Under the pieces are notes generated by a model, which made no database searches, had not been told where the DNA came from, and saw only the letters and a list, made by a program, of their open reading frames with translations. The position numbers and the translations under genes were made by a program. This document shows positions 3,675 to 15,563 of a stretch of 15,563 nucleotides of DNA, in pieces. The first letter of the stretch is position 1. Every line of letters starts with the position of its first letter. The DNA is from a virus, in the IMG/VR virus record IMGVR_UViG_3300042562_001768. The stretch is one strand, 5' to 3'.

Positions 3675-4796
3675 ATGAACCGTCTGTTCAAGCTCTTCGG
3701 CTTCAAGTCTGCACCGATGAATATCGGTTGGGACTCTCCGTCGAACTACGTCCGAGCAGACGTCGCGGCGCTGCCGTCCGTGCAGCGATGCATGAACCTG
3801 ATCGCGAACGATGTCGCGCGCTGCCCACTGGTGGTGCGCGACGCCGAGCAGATGATGGTCGAAGACTCGACGATCACCGCGCTCTTTACGAATGCGGCGC
3901 AGGCCGAGCTAAGCGGAACAGACTTCCGCCGATGGATGGCTTCGGAAGCGCTGCTGTCTGGCAACGCCTTCGCGCAGATCGTGACCGACTCGATGGGCCA
4001 GCCCGTCGCGTTGCGTCCGCTGGCGAGCTCAGCCGTCAGCCTGAACGAAGACAGTAACGGCGTGCTGCATTGGACCTACTCCGGCACCGAGATCGACTAC
4101 GCCTCGATGCTGCACTTCAAGGGTGCGCCGAGTCCAGGGAATCCGTACTGGGGCACAAGTGTCCTGAGCGCTGCGGCGACAAGCCTCGACGCAGTCGCGC
4201 AAACCGAAGCAGCCTGGAACGCATACACCCGGAGCGGCGGATACGGCAAGCTTGTCTTCAGTCATCCCGGCGCTCTCCAGCCTGCGACCCGCGACGCCAT
4301 GCGGACCGCCTTCATGTCGGGACACATGACTGCCGCCGCAGCGGGCACACCGATCTTCGTCGGCGAAGGGATGACCGTGACCGCGCTCTCGCCGTCGTGG
4401 GGCAAGGACATGATCGAGCTCCGCGCCGCGGGCGCGCGCGTGGTCGCGAACATGTTCGGCGTACCAGCCGCGTACCTCGACATGAGCGAGGCGCGCACGC
4501 AACCAGAGATCGCACAGTCGTACGTCTCGTCGTGCTTAGAAATCTGGGCCACGACCTGGGAAGCGGAGATCAGTAACAAGCTCTTGCGACCTGGTCTTCG
4601 TGTTCGTTGGGACTGGTCGCCTGTCTTGGAAGGAGACTTCCGAACCGCTGGCAAGGCGTACGGAAAGTTCGTCGAGGTCGGCGTGCTCAGTCCGAACGAC
4701 GTCCGCGTTCGCCTTGGCTACTCGCCGCTGCCTGGTCTCTGGGATCCGAGGCCAGTGATGAGTGGCATCACCATCGAATCGGACGGTCTGCAATGA
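3675..4796 (+). CDS. Portal protein (HK97-like family)
   Basis: 373-aa ORF directly between terminase and prohead protease; MNRLFKLFGFKSAPMNIGWDSPSNYV... First in-frame ATG after the terminase stop; the ORF-track start at 3288 lies inside terminase. No clear Shine-Dalgarno, so the start is uncertain (alternative ATG at 3717). Confidence 0.8.
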   Translation: MNRLFKLFGFKSAPMNIGWDSPSNYVRADVAALPSVQRCMNLIANDVARCPLVVRDAEQMMVEDSTITALFTNAAQAELSGTDFRRWMASEALLSGNAFAQIVTDSMGQPVALRPLASSAVSLNEDSNGVLHWTYSGTEIDYASMLHFKGAPSPGNPYWGTSVLSAAATSLDAVAQTEAAWNAYTRSGGYGKLVFSHPGALQPATRDAMRTAFMSGHMTAAAAGTPIFVGEGMTVTALSPSWGKDMIELRAAGARVVANMFGVPAAYLDMSEARTQPEIAQSYVSSCLEIWATTWEAEISNKLLRPGLRVRWDWSPVLEGDFRTAGKAYGKFVEVGVLSPNDVRVRLGYSPLPGLWDPRPVMSGITIESDGLQ

Positions 4797-6403
4797 TGCG
4801 AGAACTCCGCGCACAACTGGCACCGACTACCGACGGGACGGTCCGCGGATACGCGGCGCTGTTCGACTCTTGGTCGCTGCCGATCACCGAGCGCGGACGC
4901 ACGTTCCGCGAACGCATCAAGCCGGGCGCACTACAGCCGGACGGGAACGTCTCACTGTGGTGGATGCACGACCACACCGACCCACTCGCGAACACGCGCA
5001 GCGGATCGCTCACGATTACAGAGGACGCGAAGGGGATCGCATTCGTAGCCGACTTGGGTACGAGCGCGCGCGCGGACGAGATCCGCGACCTCATTCGCCG
5101 CGGGGTGGTCGACCAGATGTCGATCGGCTTCGTCGCACTCTCAGATATCTGGGACGGCAATACGTCCCGCACGATCACTAAGGCCACGCTCCATGAGGTG
5201 AGTTTGGTCGAATCGGCTGCGTACCCCGGTACGTCAGCAACCGTCCGCAACCACCAAAGGAAACCCGCTATGTCCGTCAAAGAAGATCGTGCTCGCATCG
5301 CCGAGCTCAACGCTGAATACAACACCGCTACCGATGAGCGTCAGTTCGCCATCATGGACGAAGTCGCAGAGTGTGAGGAGCGCATCGCTGGCGCCCAGGC
5401 TGCATTCACCAACCGCGCCGCCACACCGTTGGCAGTCGCACCGTCGGCACCGCTTGCCGTCGTTCGTCGCATCACGCCTCCAGTCCGTGACGAGCAGCGC
5501 GAGTGGTTCCGCACTGGCTTCAAGCAGAACCGATCCATCGGTCTGAGCGTGACGGGTGGCAACGCTACCGCCGGGCAAACTTTGCCGACCCTGAGCGGTG
5601 AGTTCATCAAGGCGCTCGACCAAGAGTCCGTGATGCGTAGCCTCGCAACCGTCGAGACCCGTGGACTCGATACCGATATCCAAGTGATCGGCACGCGCCA
5701 GACCGCTGTTCTGCTGGCAGAAAAGGCGGCGTACACATCGACCGACTTCACCGCGACCAAGCTCTCTTTCAAGAGCTACAAGTCCGGCGCGCTGACCGAC
5801 GTCACGGAAGAGGCCTTGCAGGACACCGTGTGGGATGTTGCGAGTCAGGTAGTCAGTGAACACGGTCGCGCTCACTCGCGACTCTGGGAGAACTACTACG
5901 TAAACGGTACCGGCACTTCCCAGCCGCAAGGCGCGTTTGCTGCGACCTGGACAACGACGTACACCACGGCGGCTGTTGGCTTGCCAACGGTGGCGGACTT
6001 GGTCACGGCTGCGTACAAGTTGCCAACCCCGTACCAGGCGAACGCGTCCTGGCTCATGCACTCAACTGTTTGGGCTGCGGTCGTCGGCAGTGCGGCCAGC
6101 GGCAAGTACCTCCTGAACGGTGAGAACGGGAACATCCTCAAGGACGGGGCCGTCGCTCTGTTCCTCGGCAAGCCTGTCTACCTCAGCGAGTGGGCACCAT
6201 CGGCAGCAACCGCTGCTACGGTGTCGTGCCTGTACGGTGACTTCAAGGCGGGCTACCGAATCATCGACCGCTCGATGCTGAGCTTCACCGTTGATGATGT
6301 GTCCCAGATGTCTAACGGACTCATCCGCTACACCAGTCGTATGCGCTCCGACGCCAAGGCCGTCGACGCGACCGCGATTGTCCCGGTCGTCATCAAGACC
6401 TGA
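4793..6403 (+). CDS. Prohead (capsid maturation) protease fused in frame to HK97-type major capsid protein; internal ribosome-binding site and ATG at 5270 may also give stand-alone capsid protein
   Basis: ATG at 4793 overlaps the portal stop (ATGA). The N-terminal ~159 aa (VRGYAALFDS...WWMHDHTD...VDQMSIGFVALSD...LHEVSLVESAAYPGT) match the HK97 prohead protease pattern. From MSVKEDRARIAELNAEY onward it is a coiled-coil delta region followed by a capsid-protein-like body ending ...DATAIVPVVIKT. No stop codon separates the two parts. AAGGA at 5257-5261 precedes the in-frame ATG at 5270. Confidence 0.85.
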   Translation: MMRELRAQLAPTTDGTVRGYAALFDSWSLPITERGRTFRERIKPGALQPDGNVSLWWMHDHTDPLANTRSGSLTITEDAKGIAFVADLGTSARADEIRDLIRRGVVDQMSIGFVALSDIWDGNTSRTITKATLHEVSLVESAAYPGTSATVRNHQRKPAMSVKEDRARIAELNAEYNTATDERQFAIMDEVAECEERIAGAQAAFTNRAATPLAVAPSAPLAVVRRITPPVRDEQREWFRTGFKQNRSIGLSVTGGNATAGQTLPTLSGEFIKALDQESVMRSLATVETRGLDTDIQVIGTRQTAVLLAEKAAYTSTDFTATKLSFKSYKSGALTDVTEEALQDTVWDVASQVVSEHGRAHSRLWENYYVNGTGTSQPQGAFAATWTTTYTTAAVGLPTVADLVTAAYKLPTPYQANASWLMHSTVWAAVVGSAASGKYLLNGENGNILKDGAVALFLGKPVYLSEWAPSAATAATVSCLYGDFKAGYRIIDRSMLSFTVDDVSQMSNGLIRYTSRMRSDAKAVDATAIVPVVIKT

Positions 6404-6421
6404 TTACTTGCCATCCTCGCA

Positions 6422-6449
6422 GCCGGGGCGGTCTTCGGACCGTCCCGGC
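6422..6449 (+). terminator. Strong GC-rich hairpin with UUCG tetraloop just after the capsid gene (terminator or RNA-stability element; no U-tract)
   Basis: gccggggcggtc (6422-6433), ttcg (6434-6437), gaccgtcccggc (6438-6449): a 12-bp stem with one G-U wobble. Lies between the capsid stop (6403) and the next start (6465). Confidence 0.4.
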
Positions 6450-6464
6450 AGCGCAAGGGGAACT

Positions 6465-6737
6465 ATGCCAGTACCAACCGTAGCAGAGTGCAAGGCCTGG
6501 CTGAACATCGCACACGCGACGGATGACGCTGTGCTACAGGCACAGATTGACGCAGCGATGAGCGAGCACACCGAAGCCACTGGCCGGATCTCGGCAACCA
6601 TCACCCAGGTCGAGAAGATCGCGCTGATGGAGAAGGTCGGCCAGCTCTATGGGTTCCGCGGCGATGACGTTGTCTCGCCGTCCACTTGGTTCACCGACGG
6701 CATCAGACGGATGTTCAACCCCAACAGCATCGGATGA
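6465..6737 (+). CDS. Head-tail connector / adaptor protein (gp6-like)
   Basis: 90 aa, MPVPTVAECKAWLNIAHATDDAVLQAQIDAAMSEH..., resembling gp6-like head-tail connector N-termini. AAGGGG at 6455-6460 sits just upstream of the ATG. Position immediately after the capsid gene. Confidence 0.65.
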   Translation: MPVPTVAECKAWLNIAHATDDAVLQAQIDAAMSEHTEATGRISATITQVEKIALMEKVGQLYGFRGDDVVSPSTWFTDGIRRMFNPNSIG

Positions 6738-6740
6738 ATC

Positions 6741-7070
6741 ATGGCTGGCGCTGGATACCGACGCGAACGCATGATCTACCAGACGCCGAGCCGCAGCACT
6801 GATGTCGCAGGCCAGCAGACGGTAACGTGGTCGGACGTTGTCACTCTGGCTTGCGCCATCACACCGACACAGCGCGAGGTCCTCGACGATCTTGGTGTGT
6901 CCGTGCGGACGGACATCTCGGTCGAGTCTTCGTACCACGCGAGCGTCGTGGCGAAGGGTCGGCTGAAGCACACGGTCAGCCTGTCGATCTACAACATCAT
7001 GAGCGTGACCGATCCGGACGCGGGGCGCAAGCGGCGCCTCCGGATCCTTGCTGCGGAGATCGTCCCATGA
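6741..7070 (+). CDS. Head closure / head-tail joining protein
   Basis: 109 aa, size and position typical of head-tail joining proteins (MAGAGYRRERMIYQTPSRS...RLRILAAEIVP). Call is mainly by synteny. Confidence 0.5.
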   Translation: MAGAGYRRERMIYQTPSRSTDVAGQQTVTWSDVVTLACAITPTQREVLDDLGVSVRTDISVESSYHASVVAKGRLKHTVSLSIYNIMSVTDPDAGRKRRLRILAAEIVP

Positions 7071-7846: not shown

Positions 7847-8247
7847 GCGTGGCAGGAGCAGAGTTCTATCAAGCGCTCTACACCCGCGCGACCACCGTGG
7901 CGGGTCTCGTCCTGAGTCCCGACCTGCGGCGCGAGGGTGACCCCACGCCAGCGATGTCGTACGAAATCACCAGCGCTTCTTTCAGCGTCGAGACCGACGG
8001 CAGAATCAACGAGGTCACCGCGATCGAGGTCCGCTGGGAAGCGGTCGCCGATTCACTCATCACCGCGTGGGATCTCGCGTGGAGTGTGCGCGGCGCGATC
8101 GACGGCAAGTGGGGGGTCGGCAGTCTCGACTTCGTCCTGACGTCGGCATCGATGTCCTCCGGTATGGCAACGCCCGACGACGGGCAAGGGGACGCCGAGC
8201 GCGTCGTAACTCTCACTACATCTTTCCTCGTCATGGAGACAACCTGA
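7843..8247 (+). CDS. Tail terminator-like protein
   Basis: ATG at 7843 overlaps the upstream stop (ATGA). 134 aa, located directly upstream of the major tail protein candidate. Synteny-based. Confidence 0.4.
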   Translation: MSVAGAEFYQALYTRATTVAGLVLSPDLRREGDPTPAMSYEITSASFSVETDGRINEVTAIEVRWEAVADSLITAWDLAWSVRGAIDGKWGVGSLDFVLTSASMSSGMATPDDGQGDAERVVTLTTSFLVMETT

Positions 8248-10611: not shown

Positions 10612-11111
10612 CGTACGAATGGCCGATCTTTACCGAAGGGCTTTACGGCAAGGCGAACGCCTCGGTGTGCAACGCCTGGACGCAATCGGCGCGCATCGTG
10701 CTATCAAGCGCGGAGGCGCTCGACTGGGCGAACCGAACGAAAGACGGTATGGACCAGCCCGATCGGTGGCTTGCGAAGGTCACGGGCGCAGCAGTCATCA
10801 GCAGTAATCGCTGGTCGTACACCTTTGTGCCTGTCATTATCTCCGGCACGACTACCGCGAACCTATCCGGCACTGGCCAGGCTGGCTCCGGCGCCTTGAA
10901 CTTGCGCGAGATGAACAACACCACAATCCTCGCGGATGGTTCGCCGCTCGCGAGTGGCGTGACCATCGGTCCCGTCGGCTCCACCTGGGGCGGATCGAGT
11001 TGGTCTACGAGTTCGCTGACTGGAATCGTCGAGATGAACGTCGAACATAAAGCCGACGGCAGCGTCGCGTATTGGTTTTCCTCACCGAACCCTGGGAGAT
11101 GTGCAACATGA
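10608..11111 (+). CDS. Minor tail protein, Gly/Ser/Thr-rich
   Basis: 167 aa from ATG 10608 (ATGA overlap); the ORF-track start at 10566 lies inside the previous gene. Low-complexity GTTTANLSGTGQAGSG and SSWSTSS segments are typical of fibre-like proteins. Confidence 0.5.
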   Translation: MTYEWPIFTEGLYGKANASVCNAWTQSARIVLSSAEALDWANRTKDGMDQPDRWLAKVTGAAVISSNRWSYTFVPVIISGTTTANLSGTGQAGSGALNLREMNNTTILADGSPLASGVTIGPVGSTWGGSSWSTSSLTGIVEMNVEHKADGSVAYWFSSPNPGRCAT

Positions 11112-12415
11112 AATACGACGTAATCCGGTCATACTGGCCAGCTCCGATCTACGACACGCCTCTTCCTGCTGGCGTTTATGGCAGTATGCGGGCGTTCAAC
11201 TTCATACGGGAAACCACTACCAAAGGGCTAGACGTAGCAATCGTTGGAGACAGCAACACGGGCTACAACGCTCCGAACGATGGCGGTTACGTTCAAGGCA
11301 TTTCCTATGGTTTGGATGTTGCGTTCCCTTCAAATGCTTACGCCACCGCTACGTTTACGCTGATGAACGAAGGGAACTCTGCTGGCTACAAGTGCTCAAT
11401 GCAAGGCGCATCACTGGCCAGCGCACCGGGTGGCTACGTTTCGGGAAAAGCGAGCGGCGACGCGGGTATTAAAACTTTCTTTGACCGTGGTAGTGGAAGT
11501 TGGAGTGATGCGGGCGGCGCGAACGCAGGGACGTACACGGATTTCCCATGGCTTGAATCGGGAAATCAAACCGAGAACATTAACCGTGGTATGACAATCG
11601 ACTCAGATCACCCCATCGGCGTAAACAACGCGCTCCGATATAGAGTCCTGCGGAGTCAGACCACAACGGGCGGCAGTTTCTATATGCGCGTTCGTCTGAA
11701 TGGTGGCTCATATGCACCGATTGCCACATCGGCTTCGATCCCTTGCAGTGGCGCAACTAATCTAGTTGCATCAGAACTACCGATCACTGTTGGCACTCGC
11801 AATCTGTCCTTGGCTTCATTCTGGAGCATCCAAAACGCAGTTGGTCTTTACACGGTCGGCCCGTGGGGCGGTTTGTTGCAATCGATGTACCGCCCAACAG
11901 TTGGTTGGGCAGTGGATGCGATGTATTTCATGGGTGGTGCAACCATCACCGCCATCGATACAGACTTCGCCGCAGCAAACACCGCTGGGTATCTCACCGC
12001 CACCATGCTTGCCGAGTATTACAACCGACAACTAGCGGCGGGTGGGGATGGTCGCATCGTTGTTTGGATTCAAGGCGGAGCCAACCAAAGCGACTGGACA
12101 TCGAGTCCAAGCACATGGCCAGCAAAGTGGGAATCCATTATGAATTACGTCCGCACAGCAGCCACATACGCCGCCATACCTTCGGAGAAGTTGGCATTCG
12201 TTGCGATGTGTACGCATGACATCACGGGTTATGACTTTGCTTCTAGGCGAGCCGCGCTCATCGCATTGACTACTGCAAACCCTGATCTAACGGTAGTCAA
12301 CATTCCGGAGATTATTCCGTTTGCTTCTTACTCTGCCTATGCAAGCGGAGCGCACTTGTCTAAGACCGGATACCAAACGATTGGCAATGCCATTATTCAA
12401 CGGATGCTTTCTTGA
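11108..12415 (+). CDS. SGNH/GDSL-like hydrolase (esterase/deacetylase-like) protein, tail-associated or lysis enzyme
   Basis: 435 aa from ATG 11108 (ATGA overlap). Block-I-like VAIVGDSNTGYNA near the N-terminus and a block-V-like ASGAHLSKTGYQTIGNAI near the C-terminus, with a long Gly/Ser/Thr-rich insert between. The Asp three residues before the His is not conserved (SGAH), so catalytic integrity is uncertain. G+C visibly lower than the head genes. Confidence 0.45.
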   Translation: MKYDVIRSYWPAPIYDTPLPAGVYGSMRAFNFIRETTTKGLDVAIVGDSNTGYNAPNDGGYVQGISYGLDVAFPSNAYATATFTLMNEGNSAGYKCSMQGASLASAPGGYVSGKASGDAGIKTFFDRGSGSWSDAGGANAGTYTDFPWLESGNQTENINRGMTIDSDHPIGVNNALRYRVLRSQTTTGGSFYMRVRLNGGSYAPIATSASIPCSGATNLVASELPITVGTRNLSLASFWSIQNAVGLYTVGPWGGLLQSMYRPTVGWAVDAMYFMGGATITAIDTDFAAANTAGYLTATMLAEYYNRQLAAGGDGRIVVWIQGGANQSDWTSSPSTWPAKWESIMNYVRTAATYAAIPSEKLAFVAMCTHDITGYDFASRRAALIALTTANPDLTVVNIPEIIPFASYSAYASGAHLSKTGYQTIGNAIIQRMLS

Positions 12416-12714
12416 TCCACCTAGCGGTCGTCATCCTCACGTTCCTCCTGTCAGCCTGTGCATCGAGCACGGCGCAGATCGCGCACGCAGCCAACGCGTC
12501 CCGCGTCTCGGTCGGCGCCGCGCGCGGACACCTGGTCGCCGCCAGCGCGGAGCTCGACCAGATAGAGGCTCAATGCCAGGTGGTGAGCGAGCAGATCCCG
12601 TACGTCTCTGATGATGTGCCGAGCTACATGTCGGTTCTTCAGTACGCCAGTGTTGCCGTCGTCGTCTTCGTCGTTGGCAGTCTCATCTACACCTACATAC
12701 CGCGGAAGAAATGA
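12412..12714 (+). CDS. Membrane protein with N-terminal lipoprotein-type signal (lipobox LSAC) and C-terminal transmembrane helix; lysis-associated candidate
   Basis: TTG start overlapping the upstream stop (TTGA). MIHLAVVILTFLLSAC ASST... has a hydrophobic h-region followed by L-S-A-C. The C-terminus ASVAVVVFVVGSLIYTYI PRKK is a hydrophobic helix with a basic tail. No in-frame ATG near the N-terminus, so the start is uncertain. Confidence 0.4.
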   Translation: MIHLAVVILTFLLSACASSTAQIAHAANASRVSVGAARGHLVAASAELDQIEAQCQVVSEQIPYVSDDVPSYMSVLQYASVAVVVFVVGSLIYTYIPRKK

Positions 12715-12839
12715 TGCTGACCCAAACTCAATATCTGATATGGCTCGTTGCGATTCTCGTCACGACAGCGGCTGCGGGGTGCCGAGTTGGCGCCACTTGG
12801 TCGACCTTCAAACATCAAACAAAAAAGGCTCGCAAATGA
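12711..12839 (+). CDS. Small single-pass membrane protein (42 aa), holin-like candidate
   Basis: My translation is MMLTQTQYLIWLVAILVTTAAAGCRVGATWSTFKHQTKKARK: one hydrophobic helix and a basic C-terminus. ATG overlaps the upstream stop and the next start overlaps its stop. Below the ORF-track length cutoff. Confidence 0.3.
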   Translation: MMLTQTQYLIWLVAILVTTAAAGCRVGATWSTFKHQTKKARK

Positions 12840-12949
12840 TTACGCAAGCAGACCTCTCCAGTACCCTCGGCTCAATTTTCTTCGCGACCAGTCTCGGATT
12901 CGTGGGCTTGATACTTGGTTACATCCTGTGCCGCCGGGCAAGCAAATGA
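12836..12949 (+). CDS. Small single-pass membrane protein (37 aa), holin-like candidate
   Basis: MITQADLSSTLGSIFFATSLGFVGLILGYILCRRASK, the C-terminal part of ORF-track ORF 12611..12949, whose N-terminus overlaps the previous genes. ATGA overlaps at both ends. Confidence 0.3.
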   Translation: MITQADLSSTLGSIFFATSLGFVGLILGYILCRRASK

Positions 12950-13707
12950 GTCTGCTTCGGTGTTGCTGCGGTAGCGCAACCTGTGCATCCTGTCCATCGT
13001 TACCAGGCGACTGGTCGACGCGGGACTATCGTTTGTTCATACCAGCAGTCAAGCCTGTTGGATATGGTCGCGCGAGTTCAGTGCCGAGCGGTCTATACAC
13101 CGGGCCCTGCACGCCAGCGGATCCGTACTGGAACTTGGCAGAGTGTGCATTCGACTTTACCACTGGCTCGCTGTACTACGTCTATTCTCGACTCGCAAAC
13201 TGCGAGCCCTTTCCAGAAGCTTGCGGCGAAGTCTTAAAGTTCCCGCGGGAGATCGGTGGCTTCTATACGGACAACCTTGTCCCGTCGATTACGTTCTCTA
13301 CGCAGATTGCCACGCGCACATACAACCAAACAGGCGACGTTTCATATTTCATCCAGGCGGACGTATCGCGATGCTGGGGCGGATGGGCTGGGTGTGAGAG
13401 TTGCACCAACCGAACCAAGGTCAGCCTCTACTACTTTTTTGGCAACAACTTCACATACAACGACAACTGCACAAACCATCCTGCTGGTGTTACAAAGACT
13501 GTGGAGCTGGAGTATCTCTCGAATCCTTACGCCGCAAGTGAAGGCATCGGAAAAACTTGCTACCTCAGAACCTGGAAAGTGAGCCCTGGGCCGACAGCCT
13601 TCTGCTACCCGGAAACAGGTCAATATGGCTGCGCTGATCCTTGCGTCCTTGGATCGTGTTCGTTCTTTGGATCAAGCAACTTTCCCTCAACGGTAACAAT
13701 CGTATGA
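12946..13707 (+). CDS. Cysteine-rich protein (18 Cys in 253 aa), unknown function
   Basis: ATG at 12946 overlaps the upstream stop (ATGA); the ORF-track start at 12748 is an upstream extension. N-terminal MSLLRCCCGSATCASC cluster and Cys spread through an aromatic/Asn/Thr-rich body. G+C at third codon positions visibly lower than the head genes. Confidence 0.6.
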   Translation: MSLLRCCCGSATCASCPSLPGDWSTRDYRLFIPAVKPVGYGRASSVPSGLYTGPCTPADPYWNLAECAFDFTTGSLYYVYSRLANCEPFPEACGEVLKFPREIGGFYTDNLVPSITFSTQIATRTYNQTGDVSYFIQADVSRCWGGWAGCESCTNRTKVSLYYFFGNNFTYNDNCTNHPAGVTKTVELEYLSNPYAASEGIGKTCYLRTWKVSPGPTAFCYPETGQYGCADPCVLGSCSFFGSSNFPSTVTIV

Positions 13708-13910
13708 AGATCCCAGGACAGATTGAGGCGTCGGAACATCAACCGCCCGCGCGCATAGGTCTCGGCGACGCCGTGGCAGCAGCCACAAAGGCTGTCGGGG
13801 TCAAGCCTTGCGGCGGATGTGCCAAGCGCCAGGCGGCGATGAACCGGGCGACGCCAGCCTGGGCGCGGCGGGCGCTTGGTTGGTGGTCGCGGCATTTCGG
13901 TGTACCGTGA
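13704..13910 (+). CDS. Small protein (68 aa) with a GDAVAAATKAVGVKPCGGCAKRQAAMNR motif
   Basis: ATG at 13704 overlaps the upstream stop (ATGA). The CxxC-containing segment looks like a conserved small-protein motif, but I cannot name the family. Confidence 0.45.
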   Translation: MKIPGQIEASEHQPPARIGLGDAVAAATKAVGVKPCGGCAKRQAAMNRATPAWARRALGWWSRHFGVP

Positions 13911-15027: not shown

Positions 15028-15563
15028 TGCGCGTCGCCAAGCAACACATCCACATGGGAGAGATCTTCCGCTGCTCCGGACTTGCTCCGATGCAGCGTTA
15101 CCTACTCATGGCAATAGCCGATTACGGGCTCCCCGCCTGGCCGTCCCAGGCGCGCCTCGCAAACAAAACTGGACTCTCGCGATCCAGCATCAACACGATG
15201 GTGTCAGAGTTACGTCGCCTCGGCGTCCTTACGACGGAAGGTCGGGGCAAGTCTTTGACCTATCGAATTGACCTGTCTGGGAAGGGTGAGGTGTCGTCCG
15301 CAGCGACACCTCACCTGTCGTCCACAGCGACACCACCTGTCGTCCACAGCGACAGCAGGTGTCGCCCACAGCGACAGGGATCAGAACTCTCCAAGGAACT
15401 CTCCAATGAACCCTCCCAGTCCGCGGTGGAAACCGCGGGGGGGTGGGAGGTCTTTGGGGAGGTCATGCAAGCCATCGAACGGCACGATCCGCGAGCCCAG
15501 GGAGACCTGCCCGGACAGCGCCGCGTCGTGCGTCGGCGCCTGGATGAACTCGGCATCAAGGAC
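15027..15563 (+). CDS. Winged-helix DNA-binding protein, putative replication initiator with embedded iterons; truncated by the window edge and completed by 2..280 (229 aa in total)
   Basis: ATG at 15027 (TGATG overlap with erf stop). N-terminus MQRYLLMAIADYGLPAWPSQARLANKTGLSRSSINTMVSELRRLGVLTTEG is HTH-like. The frame is open to the window end and continues through the duplicated 127 nt. The Ser/Thr/Pro-rich linker is encoded by the iteron array. Confidence 0.65.
   Translation, partial: MRVAKQHIHMGEIFRCSGLAPMQRYLLMAIADYGLPAWPSQARLANKTGLSRSSINTMVSELRRLGVLTTEGRGKSLTYRIDLSGKGEVSSAATPHLSSTATPPVVHSDSRCRPQRQGSELSKELSNEPSQSAVETAGGWEVFGEVMQAIERHDPRAQGDLPGQRRVVRRRLDELGIKD
15285..15376. promoter_or_regulatory. 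Array of four 17-bp palindromic iteron-like repeats (tgtcgYccRcagcgaca), candidate origin of replication or operator
   Basis: Units at 15292-15308, 15316-15332, 15338-15354 and 15360-15376, spaced 24/22/22 bp. Each is an inverted repeat tgtcg-N7-cgaca. The first is extended to 12-bp arms (ggtgaggtgtcg / cgacacctcacc, 15285-15315). Followed by an AT-richer 11-bp direct repeat gaactctccaa x2 at 15384-15406. Confidence 0.55.

Follow-up and report, generated by a model that had tools for sequence, protein, structure and literature searches.

Three overlapping genes for small membrane proteins: a candidate lysis module in an uncultivated tailed phage of 15.4 kb

A conserved trio of overlapping genes

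The IMG/VR virus record IMGVR_UViG_3300042562_001768 is a stretch of 15,563 nucleotides (nt) from a small tailed phage and is referred to at its full length as the window. Downstream of its tail genes lie three overlapping open reading frames, ORF1, ORF2, and ORF3, which encode small membrane proteins and are the subject of this analysis. A preliminary description of the DNA had placed three coupled genes of this kind at 12412-12949 and had proposed that they form a lysis cassette. The coordinates proved exact, and the genes are listed here with the lengths of their products in amino acids (aa).

12412-12714, plus strand: ORF1, TTG start, 100 aa
12711-12839, plus strand: ORF2, ATG start, 42 aa
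12836-12949, plus strand: ORF3, ATG start, 37 aa

Each junction of the trio is a 4-nt overlap of start and stop codons, reading TTGA where the upstream gene ends and ORF1 begins, and ATGA at ORF1/ORF2, at ORF2/ORF3, and between ORF3 and the next gene (12946). The window was compared with 80 related loci (L006-L085) on viral metagenome contigs, which belong to phages with genomes of about 15.4 to 17 kb (hereafter the 15-17-kb family); genes located 3' of ORF1 were counted in the 67 of these loci that have at least 400 nt downstream. ORF1, ORF2, and ORF3 were all found in 67 of 67 loci, including ORF2, which the gene caller of the source database had skipped. The median pairwise ratios of nonsynonymous to synonymous substitution rates (dN/dS) are 0.31 for ORF1, 0.20 for ORF2, and 0.26 for ORF3, indicating that all three are genes under purifying selection. 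They are also the sole membrane proteins conserved across the family (gene clusters c1, c44, and c16 for ORF1, ORF2, and ORF3, respectively), and the trio is retained in divergent relatives of the family.

The TTG start codon that the preliminary description had assigned to ORF1 is supported by comparison among the loci. The aligned codon is ATG in 35 of the 67 loci (among them L006, a 99%-identical relative), GTG in 11, TTG in 6, and CTG in 15, and in 61 of 67 it lies inside an NTGA overlap with the upstream stop codon. The loci with CTG always have CTGA over the upstream stop, with GGAG 5 nt upstream, and no other in-frame start for ORF1 was found in them. This suggests that ORF1 is translated there either from a non-canonical start codon or by coupling or reinitiation.

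Predicted architecture of ORF1

The topology of the three proteins was deduced from hydropathy, charge distribution, conservation, and an AlphaFold2 model. In ORF1, four segments can be distinguished.

12412-12459, plus strand: signal peptide (residues 1-15, MIHLAVVILTFLLSA) and Cys16 (12457-12459), with the lipobox LSAC at residues 13-16
12469-12597, plus strand: predicted periplasmic coiled coil (residues 20-62), six heptads with an Ala-rich core
12595-12621, plus strand: hinge IPYVSDDVP (residues 62-70), from conservation and a loop in the AlphaFold2 model
12625-12711, plus strand: C-terminal membrane helix (residues ~72-95) and basic end IPRKK, from hydropathy

By these features ORF1 is a predicted lipoprotein. 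The lipoprotein-type signal and C-terminal transmembrane helix recognized in the preliminary description both stand: Cys16 is invariant across 44 sequences of the ORF1 family, Kyte-Doolittle analysis detects hydrophobic segments at residues 1-24 and 69-98, and the AlphaFold2 model (predicted local distance difference test score, pLDDT, 75.6) consists of helix 2-61, loop 62-70, and helix 71-95. The hydrophobic run ahead of Cys16 is only about 14 residues long, which is typical of a lipoprotein signal and insufficient for a stable membrane helix; a true N-terminal membrane helix was therefore rejected. Residue +2 is Ala, and Asp never occurs at this position in the sequences inspected. A profile search of 1.84 billion representative proteins with ORF1 recovered 14 clusters only. 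Distant homologues have canonical lipoprotein signals (MKRLAAILLLTGC, MIRWAVILALAGC, and MEKMNLHLYIVLIALIAGC), the VSDD hinge, and the C-terminal helix. In these and in the longer homologues described below, the n-region of the signal is basic and the lipobox has the form L[AST][GA]C.

The segment between the lipobox and the hinge has a regular heptad pattern. In the 44 sequences, the a/d positions (20, 23, 27, 30, 34, 37, 41, 44, 48, 51, 55, 58, and 62) have a mean hydropathy of 2.67, versus -0.97 at the remaining positions. One of the 'a' positions is occupied by a cysteine (Cys55) in the clade of the window only. The predicted periplasmic part comprises 56 to 58 aa and is about 80% helical. 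Within the hinge, I62, P63, V65, S66, D67, and D68 are invariant, and so are Q77, Y78, G89, Y93, P97, and R98 in the C-terminal helix and its basic end.

Neither a profile search of the PDB nor a search among viral structures for the fold of the ORF1 model returned anything significant. The sub-threshold matches of ORF1 in NCBIfam are lipoprotein families throughout. Among the best matches in both databases is Braun's lipoprotein Lpp (PDB, E = 1.3; PRK15396, E = 0.067, with a cutoff of 108 bits), whose mature periplasmic segment is likewise about 56 to 58 aa long and an Ala-rich coiled coil. However, the phage-encoded ORF1 ends in a membrane helix, whereas Lpp ends in a lysine that is linked to peptidoglycan. 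The likeness of ORF1 to Lpp and other lipoprotein families is treated as one of composition, not of homology.

Single-pass peptides encoded by ORF2 and ORF3

ORF2 has one hydrophobic helix (residues 8-28 by Kyte-Doolittle), which ends in a conserved A-[AGS]-G-C motif (Cys24, 12780-12782). Its N-terminus is uncharged, and the helix is followed by a tail of 18 to 23 aa with a net charge of about +6, so that an orientation with the N-terminus out and the C-terminus in (N-out/C-in) is favored by the positive-inside rule. Since the A-[AGS]-G-C motif also fits a lipobox, ORF2 may be a lipopeptide instead of a single-pass peptide, although this is the less likely of the two. Distant versions of ORF2 are present in L086, L087, and L093.

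ORF3 likewise has one hydrophobic segment (residues 9-33), a predicted glycine-zipper helix with a face that is conserved at every fourth residue (G12-F16-L20-G24-G28-C32), and it ends in the basic sequence RRASK. Both peptides have the size and topology by which holins are recognized, being small, with a charged C-terminus and one or more transmembrane domains. The holin-like character ascribed to them in the preliminary description is thus upheld for the single helix and the basic C-termini, whereas no known holin family was matched.

Relatives of the trio in other phage types

ORF1 belongs to a broader family as its short form, and the long forms comprise 159 to 188 aa (hhalign probability 98.7%, E = 1.5e-16). 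In the long forms, the predicted periplasmic part is about 75 to 95 aa and the hinge motif is kept as LPxVEDKxP. The proteins then run beyond the basic IPRKK/IPKKK into a conserved domain of about 50 aa that is predicted to be cytoplasmic, from which it follows that ORF1 has its basic end at the cytoplasmic side of the membrane. A profile search led by a 40-aa homologue of ORF3 showed that this family is larger, with more than 164 clusters of single-helix peptides of 34 to 46 aa, including members on phage contigs of 30 to 64 kb. These peptides share the motif LA[DS]xxSF[LI]GS[LI]WFAG.

In all six of the other phage types examined, a gene for a lipoprotein with a membrane helix lies upstream of an ORF3 homologue. 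Five of these types have the homologue directly after the lipoprotein gene, and there a gene for a small membrane protein precedes the lipoprotein gene. These trios follow tail-fibre genes or have another position within the late gene block or at its end. The gene orders are as follows.

T7-like contigs L097-L099: nozzle, T7-fibre-like protein, 72-aa protein, 188-aa protein, 42-aa ORF3 homologue, gp18-like small terminase, large terminase
L100-L102: fibre-like gene, then genes for 66, 167, and 38 aa
L106: genes for 88, 173, and 37 aa, last in the late block, after tailspike and collar genes
L103: 36-aa single-helix peptide, 59-aa small lipoprotein (o-spanin-like), then genes for 159 and 35 aa
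L110: 104-aa protein (membrane helix and coiled coil), 211-aa lipoprotein, 35-aa ORF3 homologue
L094: two inserted genes between the lipoprotein gene and the ORF3 homologue

In the T7-like contigs, the 72-aa protein consists of a membrane helix and a coiled coil, and the 188-aa protein is a predicted lipoprotein with a membrane helix. The trio occupies the slot between fibre and small terminase where T7 itself encodes its holin, gp17.5. The 211-aa lipoprotein of L110 has a proline-rich start and several hydrophobic segments.

A long form was also observed in a setting that is unusual for lysis genes. In a lambda-like phage with a guanine-plus-cytosine content of 70% (L089, 9705-10549), a 182-aa homologue of ORF1 is encoded between the capsid and head-tail genes and is preceded, with a 4-nt overlap, by the gene for a protein of 99 aa that has a coiled coil in its N-terminal part and a membrane helix at its C-terminus.

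A candidate lysis module

With moderate confidence, we favor the view that the trio is a lysis or envelope-disruption module of the ~15.4-kb tailed phage. This is the best explanation for the observations that its products are the only conserved membrane proteins, that their relatives move as a unit among unrelated phage types and occupy positions typical of lysis genes, and that their topologies are holin-like and spanin-like. The lysis cassette of the preliminary description is therefore retained in part: relatives in a holin slot and the status of the trio as sole conserved membrane proteins support it, whereas the library searches yielded no holin or spanin family and no endolysin.

If the trio serves lysis, its translation would be late and coupled to that of the tail genes. 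ORF3, by itself or jointly with ORF2, would insert N-out/C-in into the inner membrane, form oligomers through its glycine-zipper face, and permeabilize the membrane at the end of infection in the role of a holin; ORF2 could be a partner of ORF3 or an antiholin. ORF1 would be lipidated at Cys16. Its N-terminus would be directed to the outer membrane, since +2 is Ala and not Asp (the rule in E. coli), and its C-terminal helix would remain in the inner membrane. As a parallel, Lpp-like coiled-coil oligomer of about 6 to 10 nm, ORF1 may tether both membranes and, after breach of the cell wall, disrupt or fuse them in the manner of a unimolecular spanin (u-spanin).

Several comparisons with known lysis systems agree with this proposal. 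The operational definition of a u-spanin is an outer-membrane-type lipoprotein signal combined with a C-terminal membrane helix, with T1 gp11 as the prototype (Kongari 2018, PMC6139136). ORF1 has the lipobox cysteine and, at its C-terminus, a transmembrane domain with a basic, predicted cytoplasmic end, and like u-spanins it has a residue other than Asp at +2, is small, and is encoded among small membrane-protein genes of the late or lysis type. ORF2 and ORF3 resemble small holins in their size, single hydrophobic helix, and basic C-terminus and, in ORF3, the glycine-zipper face, and the ORF3 homologues of T7-like contigs share the genomic slot of gp17.5. A likeness to Rz/Rz1 of lambda is seen in L097, L101, L106, and L110, where the gene directly ahead of the lipoprotein gene encodes a small protein that has both a membrane helix and a coiled coil, in the order of an i-spanin/o-spanin pair; as in Rz1, the lipoprotein of L110 has a proline-rich start. 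Unlike Rz1, the lipoproteins of the ORF1 family have a membrane helix of their own, and the window phage, in contrast to Rz/Rz1 and to these relatives, has no helix-plus-coiled-coil partner and encodes ORF2 instead.

A number of results weigh against a lysis function, and the first concern the enzymes and families that would be expected. Nearly all called proteins of the window were scanned against Pfam or PHROGs; the 68-aa protein with a CxxC motif was scanned against NCBIfam and PHROGs, and the helix-turn-helix (HTH) protein is covered by precomputed Pfam matches only. No lysis or muralytic family was matched by the called proteins (Pfam for most, PHROGs or NCBIfam otherwise). For the family, we scanned one representative for each of 120 gene clusters from the 80 loci. 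In Pfam these matched 22 families of head, tail-fibre or spike, and DNA metabolism proteins, none of them muralytic; for PHROGs, 25 of 85 families are among the matches listed. The preliminary statement that there is no canonical muralytic enzyme near the trio therefore holds, and it extends to the whole genome and, in Pfam, to the 120 cluster representatives. Similarly, no annotated muralytic gene adjoins the trio in the other contexts examined. ORF1, ORF2, and ORF3 matched no holin or spanin family in Pfam or PHROGs and had no above-threshold match in NCBIfam; the only near-match of ORF2 and ORF3 as holins is phrog_13969, a family of unknown function (E = 0.053).

Cultured phages likewise yielded no homologue of the trio. 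Among 50,697 phage records, there was no match to the region in blastn searches or to ORF1, three of its long-form homologues, and one ORF3 homologue in tblastn searches.

Further points against the proposal come from ORF1 itself, for which the preliminary suggestion of a u-spanin-like topology (lipobox and C-terminal helix) stands. It has no sequence similarity to Pfam families or PHROGs flagged as spanins. Its periplasmic part of 56 to 58 aa is slightly shorter than the periplasmic domains of 55 u-spanins listed in PMC6139136, which comprise 60 to 149 aa. As far as the structural classes in that list go, u-spanins are mostly beta, and several families are about 40% helical (for example, the PB1-like group) and at most about 43%. 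T1 gp11 is 14% helix and 32% beta (PMC6139136), whereas ORF1 is predicted to be a six-heptad coiled coil with about 80% helix. None of 58 known u-spanins has a periplasmic cysteine (PMC6139136), whereas ORF1 has Cys55 in the clade of the window.

The predicted periplasmic helix spans at most about 10 nm, and bridging of the membranes by such a rigid coiled coil would need their close apposition or deformation. In the window clade, the n-region of the signal has no Lys or Arg. Unlike u-spanins, the long forms add a conserved cytoplasmic domain, which would be superfluous for a pure spanin. The gene order is also atypical, since ORF1 is first in its cluster and not last as a spanin gene would be, and the u-spanin cassettes with holin and endolysin differ from the window phage, where the library scans detected no endolysin.

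For ORF2 and ORF3, the differences from holins are similar in kind. They have no sequence similarity to known holins, and they are two different peptides. Their families comprise 35 to 46 aa, versus 67 aa for T7 gp17.5 (from coordinates), and we know of no holin as small as this.

Given the lack of a detected endolysin, single-gene lysis peptides of small phages, such as the 37-aa LysM and E of phiX174, offer another comparison. These phages have single-stranded RNA (ssRNA) or single-stranded DNA (ssDNA) genomes and no endolysin. ORF2 and ORF3 are of similar size, with a single helix, but they share no sequence similarity with such peptides and are encoded by a tailed phage with double-stranded DNA (dsDNA). 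It is decidedly unlikely that the 15-17-kb family lyses its hosts without any endolysin. If it did, the mini-peptides could either interfere with one step in the synthesis of the wall, in the way of the single-gene lysis proteins of ssRNA and ssDNA phages, or unleash autolysins of the host, which would leave the outer membrane to ORF1. No tailed phage is known to lyse its host without a muralytic enzyme of its own, and this family would be the first. A tailed-phage genome of ~15.4 kb without a recognizable endolysin is in any case a compact test case for endolysin-free lysis or for a new type of lysin.

ORF1, ORF2, and ORF3 are best taken as new families of a known functional kind, the unusual features of which are a minimal helical lipoprotein that ends in a membrane helix, partner peptides of 35 to 46 aa, and the absence of a detectable lysin. 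If the trio is a lysis module, it adds two undescribed families of lysis proteins, namely a lipoprotein that combines a coiled coil with a membrane helix and occurs in a short and a long form, and a glycine-zipper peptide of 34 to 46 aa. Occurring in several unrelated types of uncultivated aquatic phages, both would fill in lysis genes that are missing from metagenomic annotations, and the u-spanin class would be extended to a minimal, fully helical, Lpp-like form.

Alternative functions of the trio

An alternative is that the module serves lysis without a spanin, with ORF1 as a regulator, antiholin, or subunit of the holin, and the trio as a set of holin and antiholin. The lipid anchor of ORF1 would then stay in the inner membrane, or its N-terminal segment would be an uncleaved anchor. 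We consider this unlikely, although part of the evidence cited above suits it, namely the short, rigid coiled coil with its limited span, which falls below the listed range of u-spanins, and the absence of Lys and Arg from the n-region in the window clade. The conserved cytoplasmic domain of the long forms would suit regulation, and the very high conservation of hinge and membrane helix points to specific partners inside the membrane. However, a stable membrane helix would need a longer hydrophobic run than the one ahead of Cys16, neither Cys16 nor the lipobox varies, Asp is absent from +2 in the sequences inspected, and several relatives encode the upstream helix-plus-coiled-coil protein that makes up an i-spanin/o-spanin-like pair.

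It is quite unlikely that the trio has no part in lysis and instead acts in superinfection exclusion, receptor masking, or another change of the cell surface, like SieA of P22, Imm and Sp of T4, or Llp of T5. Exclusion systems typically include small lipoproteins and proteins with membrane helices, the trio has a hypervariable gene of host-range type on either side, and no lysin adjoins it. Exclusion genes, however, are usually accessory and patchy in their distribution, whereas the trio is universal among the 67 loci and is retained in divergent relatives. It is also translationally coupled within the late structural operon, its relatives occupy the holin slot of T7-like phages, and with the trio assigned to exclusion the phage would have no holin candidate left.

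Finally, it is very improbable that the trio provides a membrane platform for maturing, tethering, or exporting the Cys-rich protein encoded next, which has a conserved N-terminal RR-CCC motif (RRCCC in the following). In favor of this, the ORF1-ORF2-ORF3-RRCCC block does not vary within the 15-17-kb family, where the junction is ATGA throughout, and it is kept in L086 and L093. At the predicted cytoplasmic boundary of the membrane, both ORF2 and ORF3 have conserved cysteines, and a CxxC motif is present in the small protein encoded after the Cys-rich gene. Against it, the T7-like, L101, L103, L106, and L110 contexts have ORF3 and the lipoprotein but no RRCCC gene, and the ORF3 cysteine has been lost in many family members.

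Host

The host of the window phage is fairly likely to be a bacterium with two membranes (diderm). To our knowledge, T7-like phages infect Gram-negative bacteria only, so the homologues in T7-like phages indicate that cassettes of this type work in double-membraned hosts. The caveat of the preliminary description that a monoderm host would invalidate the spanin reading of ORF1 still stands and counts among the points against a lysis module with a spanin. A scan for the ORF1 family in one genome per bacterial and archaeal species found nothing. Labels of metagenome bins conflict, with one homologue assigned to Planctomycetes and one portal fragment to Proteobacteria. The motif of the small CxxC protein occurs in a genuine chromosome contig of Planctomycetes, fused to a zinc ribbon and beside hallmark DUF1559/N-methyl genes. 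It occurs also on a 35-kb phage contig binned as Planctomycetaceae, together with a long-form ORF1 and an ORF3 homologue, and in a bin of Pseudonocardiaceae. The links to Planctomycetes are hints of a host among the Planctomycetota or other diderms.

In the T7-like contig L097, a 224-aa protein encoded after the small terminase (6359-7033) has a signal peptide and, judged by eye only, a PEP-CTERM-like C-terminus (LPSPGALALLGFGGLVCYRRR). Such a signal, if real, would imply a Gram-negative host with exosortase.

Genes flanking the trio

The trio is flanked by variable genes on both sides.

11099-12415, plus strand: upstream neighbor, 438 aa, at the variable position of receptor-binding and tail-fibre proteins; its stop codon overlaps the start of ORF1
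12946-13707, plus strand: downstream neighbor, 253 aa, Cys-rich, with the conserved N-terminus MS-x-x-R-CCC and a hypervariable body
13704-13910, plus strand: small CxxC protein, 68 aa, with the motif GDxVAxATKAVGxKPCGGCxKRQAAxN; phrog_32048 (function unknown)

Relatives have unrelated proteins at the position of the 438-aa gene, and the 438-aa protein itself had no match in Pfam, PHROGs, NCBIfam, or PDB sequences. By eye only, it contains blocks like those of SGNH esterases (VGDSNT ... QGGANQSD ... GAHLSKTGY), an impression for which the alignment of the upstream tail-fibre cluster is too heterogeneous to serve as a test. In Pfam and among the PHROG matches listed, the only tail-fibre and spike-type matches of the 120 cluster representatives, taken over the family as a whole, are Mtd_N, beta-helix, pectate-lyase-like, and Laminin_G_3.

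The Cys-rich gene overlaps ORF3 by 4 nt (ATGA) in 67 of 67 loci, and across L006-L085 its product always starts with MS-(R/L)-(R/K/L)-(R/K)-CCC. Beyond this start, there are at least eight unrelated bodies (244 to 609 aa), which differ even between phages with 99%-identical ORF1, and the small CxxC protein changes its N-terminal part in step with the type of body. No version has a Pfam domain, and the 253-aa protein had no match among PDB sequences; its AlphaFold2 model is mostly beta, with a pLDDT of 46 that makes it unusable for a fold search. The Cys-rich gene was considered as an endolysin and rejected, since it switches between unrelated types among near-identical phages and its small downstream partner co-varies, which is the behavior of a host-range gene and not of an endolysin. 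From this pattern, the Cys-rich protein is probably a second host-range protein. The motif of the CxxC protein was also observed at L094 ~7990-8183, L096 535-924, and L095 849-1019.

Genome of the phage and its family

The window represents a complete genome of ~15,436 bp that is circular or terminally redundant. Bases 1-127 are repeated at 15437-15563 (a 127-nt terminal repeat), and independent assemblies of the same phage are circularly permuted contigs of 14.5 to 15.5 kb, which together establish its completeness. Permuted contigs of 15.4 to 15.9 kb likewise show the genome to be circular. The genome is that of a short-tailed, siphovirus-like tailed dsDNA phage with an HK97-type head, and it is among the smallest for tailed phages with such a head.

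All genes are on the plus strand. They begin with an HNH endonuclease, large terminase, portal, fused protease-capsid, head-tail adaptor, and head-completion protein, followed by a short tail module, ORF1-ORF2-ORF3, the Cys-rich protein, and the small CxxC protein. Replication and recombination genes (ERF, the HTH protein, and a RusA/PDDEXK-like nuclease) follow. In a scan of the window for promoters and terminators, the counts were not above chance expectation. Two further features are given below.

4793-6403, plus strand: fused protease-capsid gene, prohead protease (Peptidase_S78) joined to the major capsid protein, 536 aa
684-779, plus strand: very hydrophobic 31-aa ORF (MIGFIFVSFLLLLAAAPFIAIATLLPWESDD) in the early region, overlapping the end of a 136-aa gene

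The closest cultured analogue of the protease-capsid fusion is found in phage vB_KppS-Ant (16.5 kb), with 29.5% identity. All relatives of the capsid and portal proteins among the 50,697 phage records are less than 31% identical, so that neither a cultured relative nor a host can be inferred from them.

Three of the family loci are on contigs longer than a single genome. L016 and L021 are both from IMGVR_UViG_3300042293_000483 (33 kb), and L020 lies on one of 28 kb. Both contigs consist of one or two related ~16-kb genomes joined head to tail and have no host flanks; an origin as prophages was therefore rejected in favor of concatemers. The two genome copies on the 33-kb contig differ in their tail-fibre and Cys-rich genes. 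The 31-aa ORF at 684-779 is a called gene in the source assemblies and is kept in the closest relatives only, and the early region of other clades encodes different small hydrophobic peptides.

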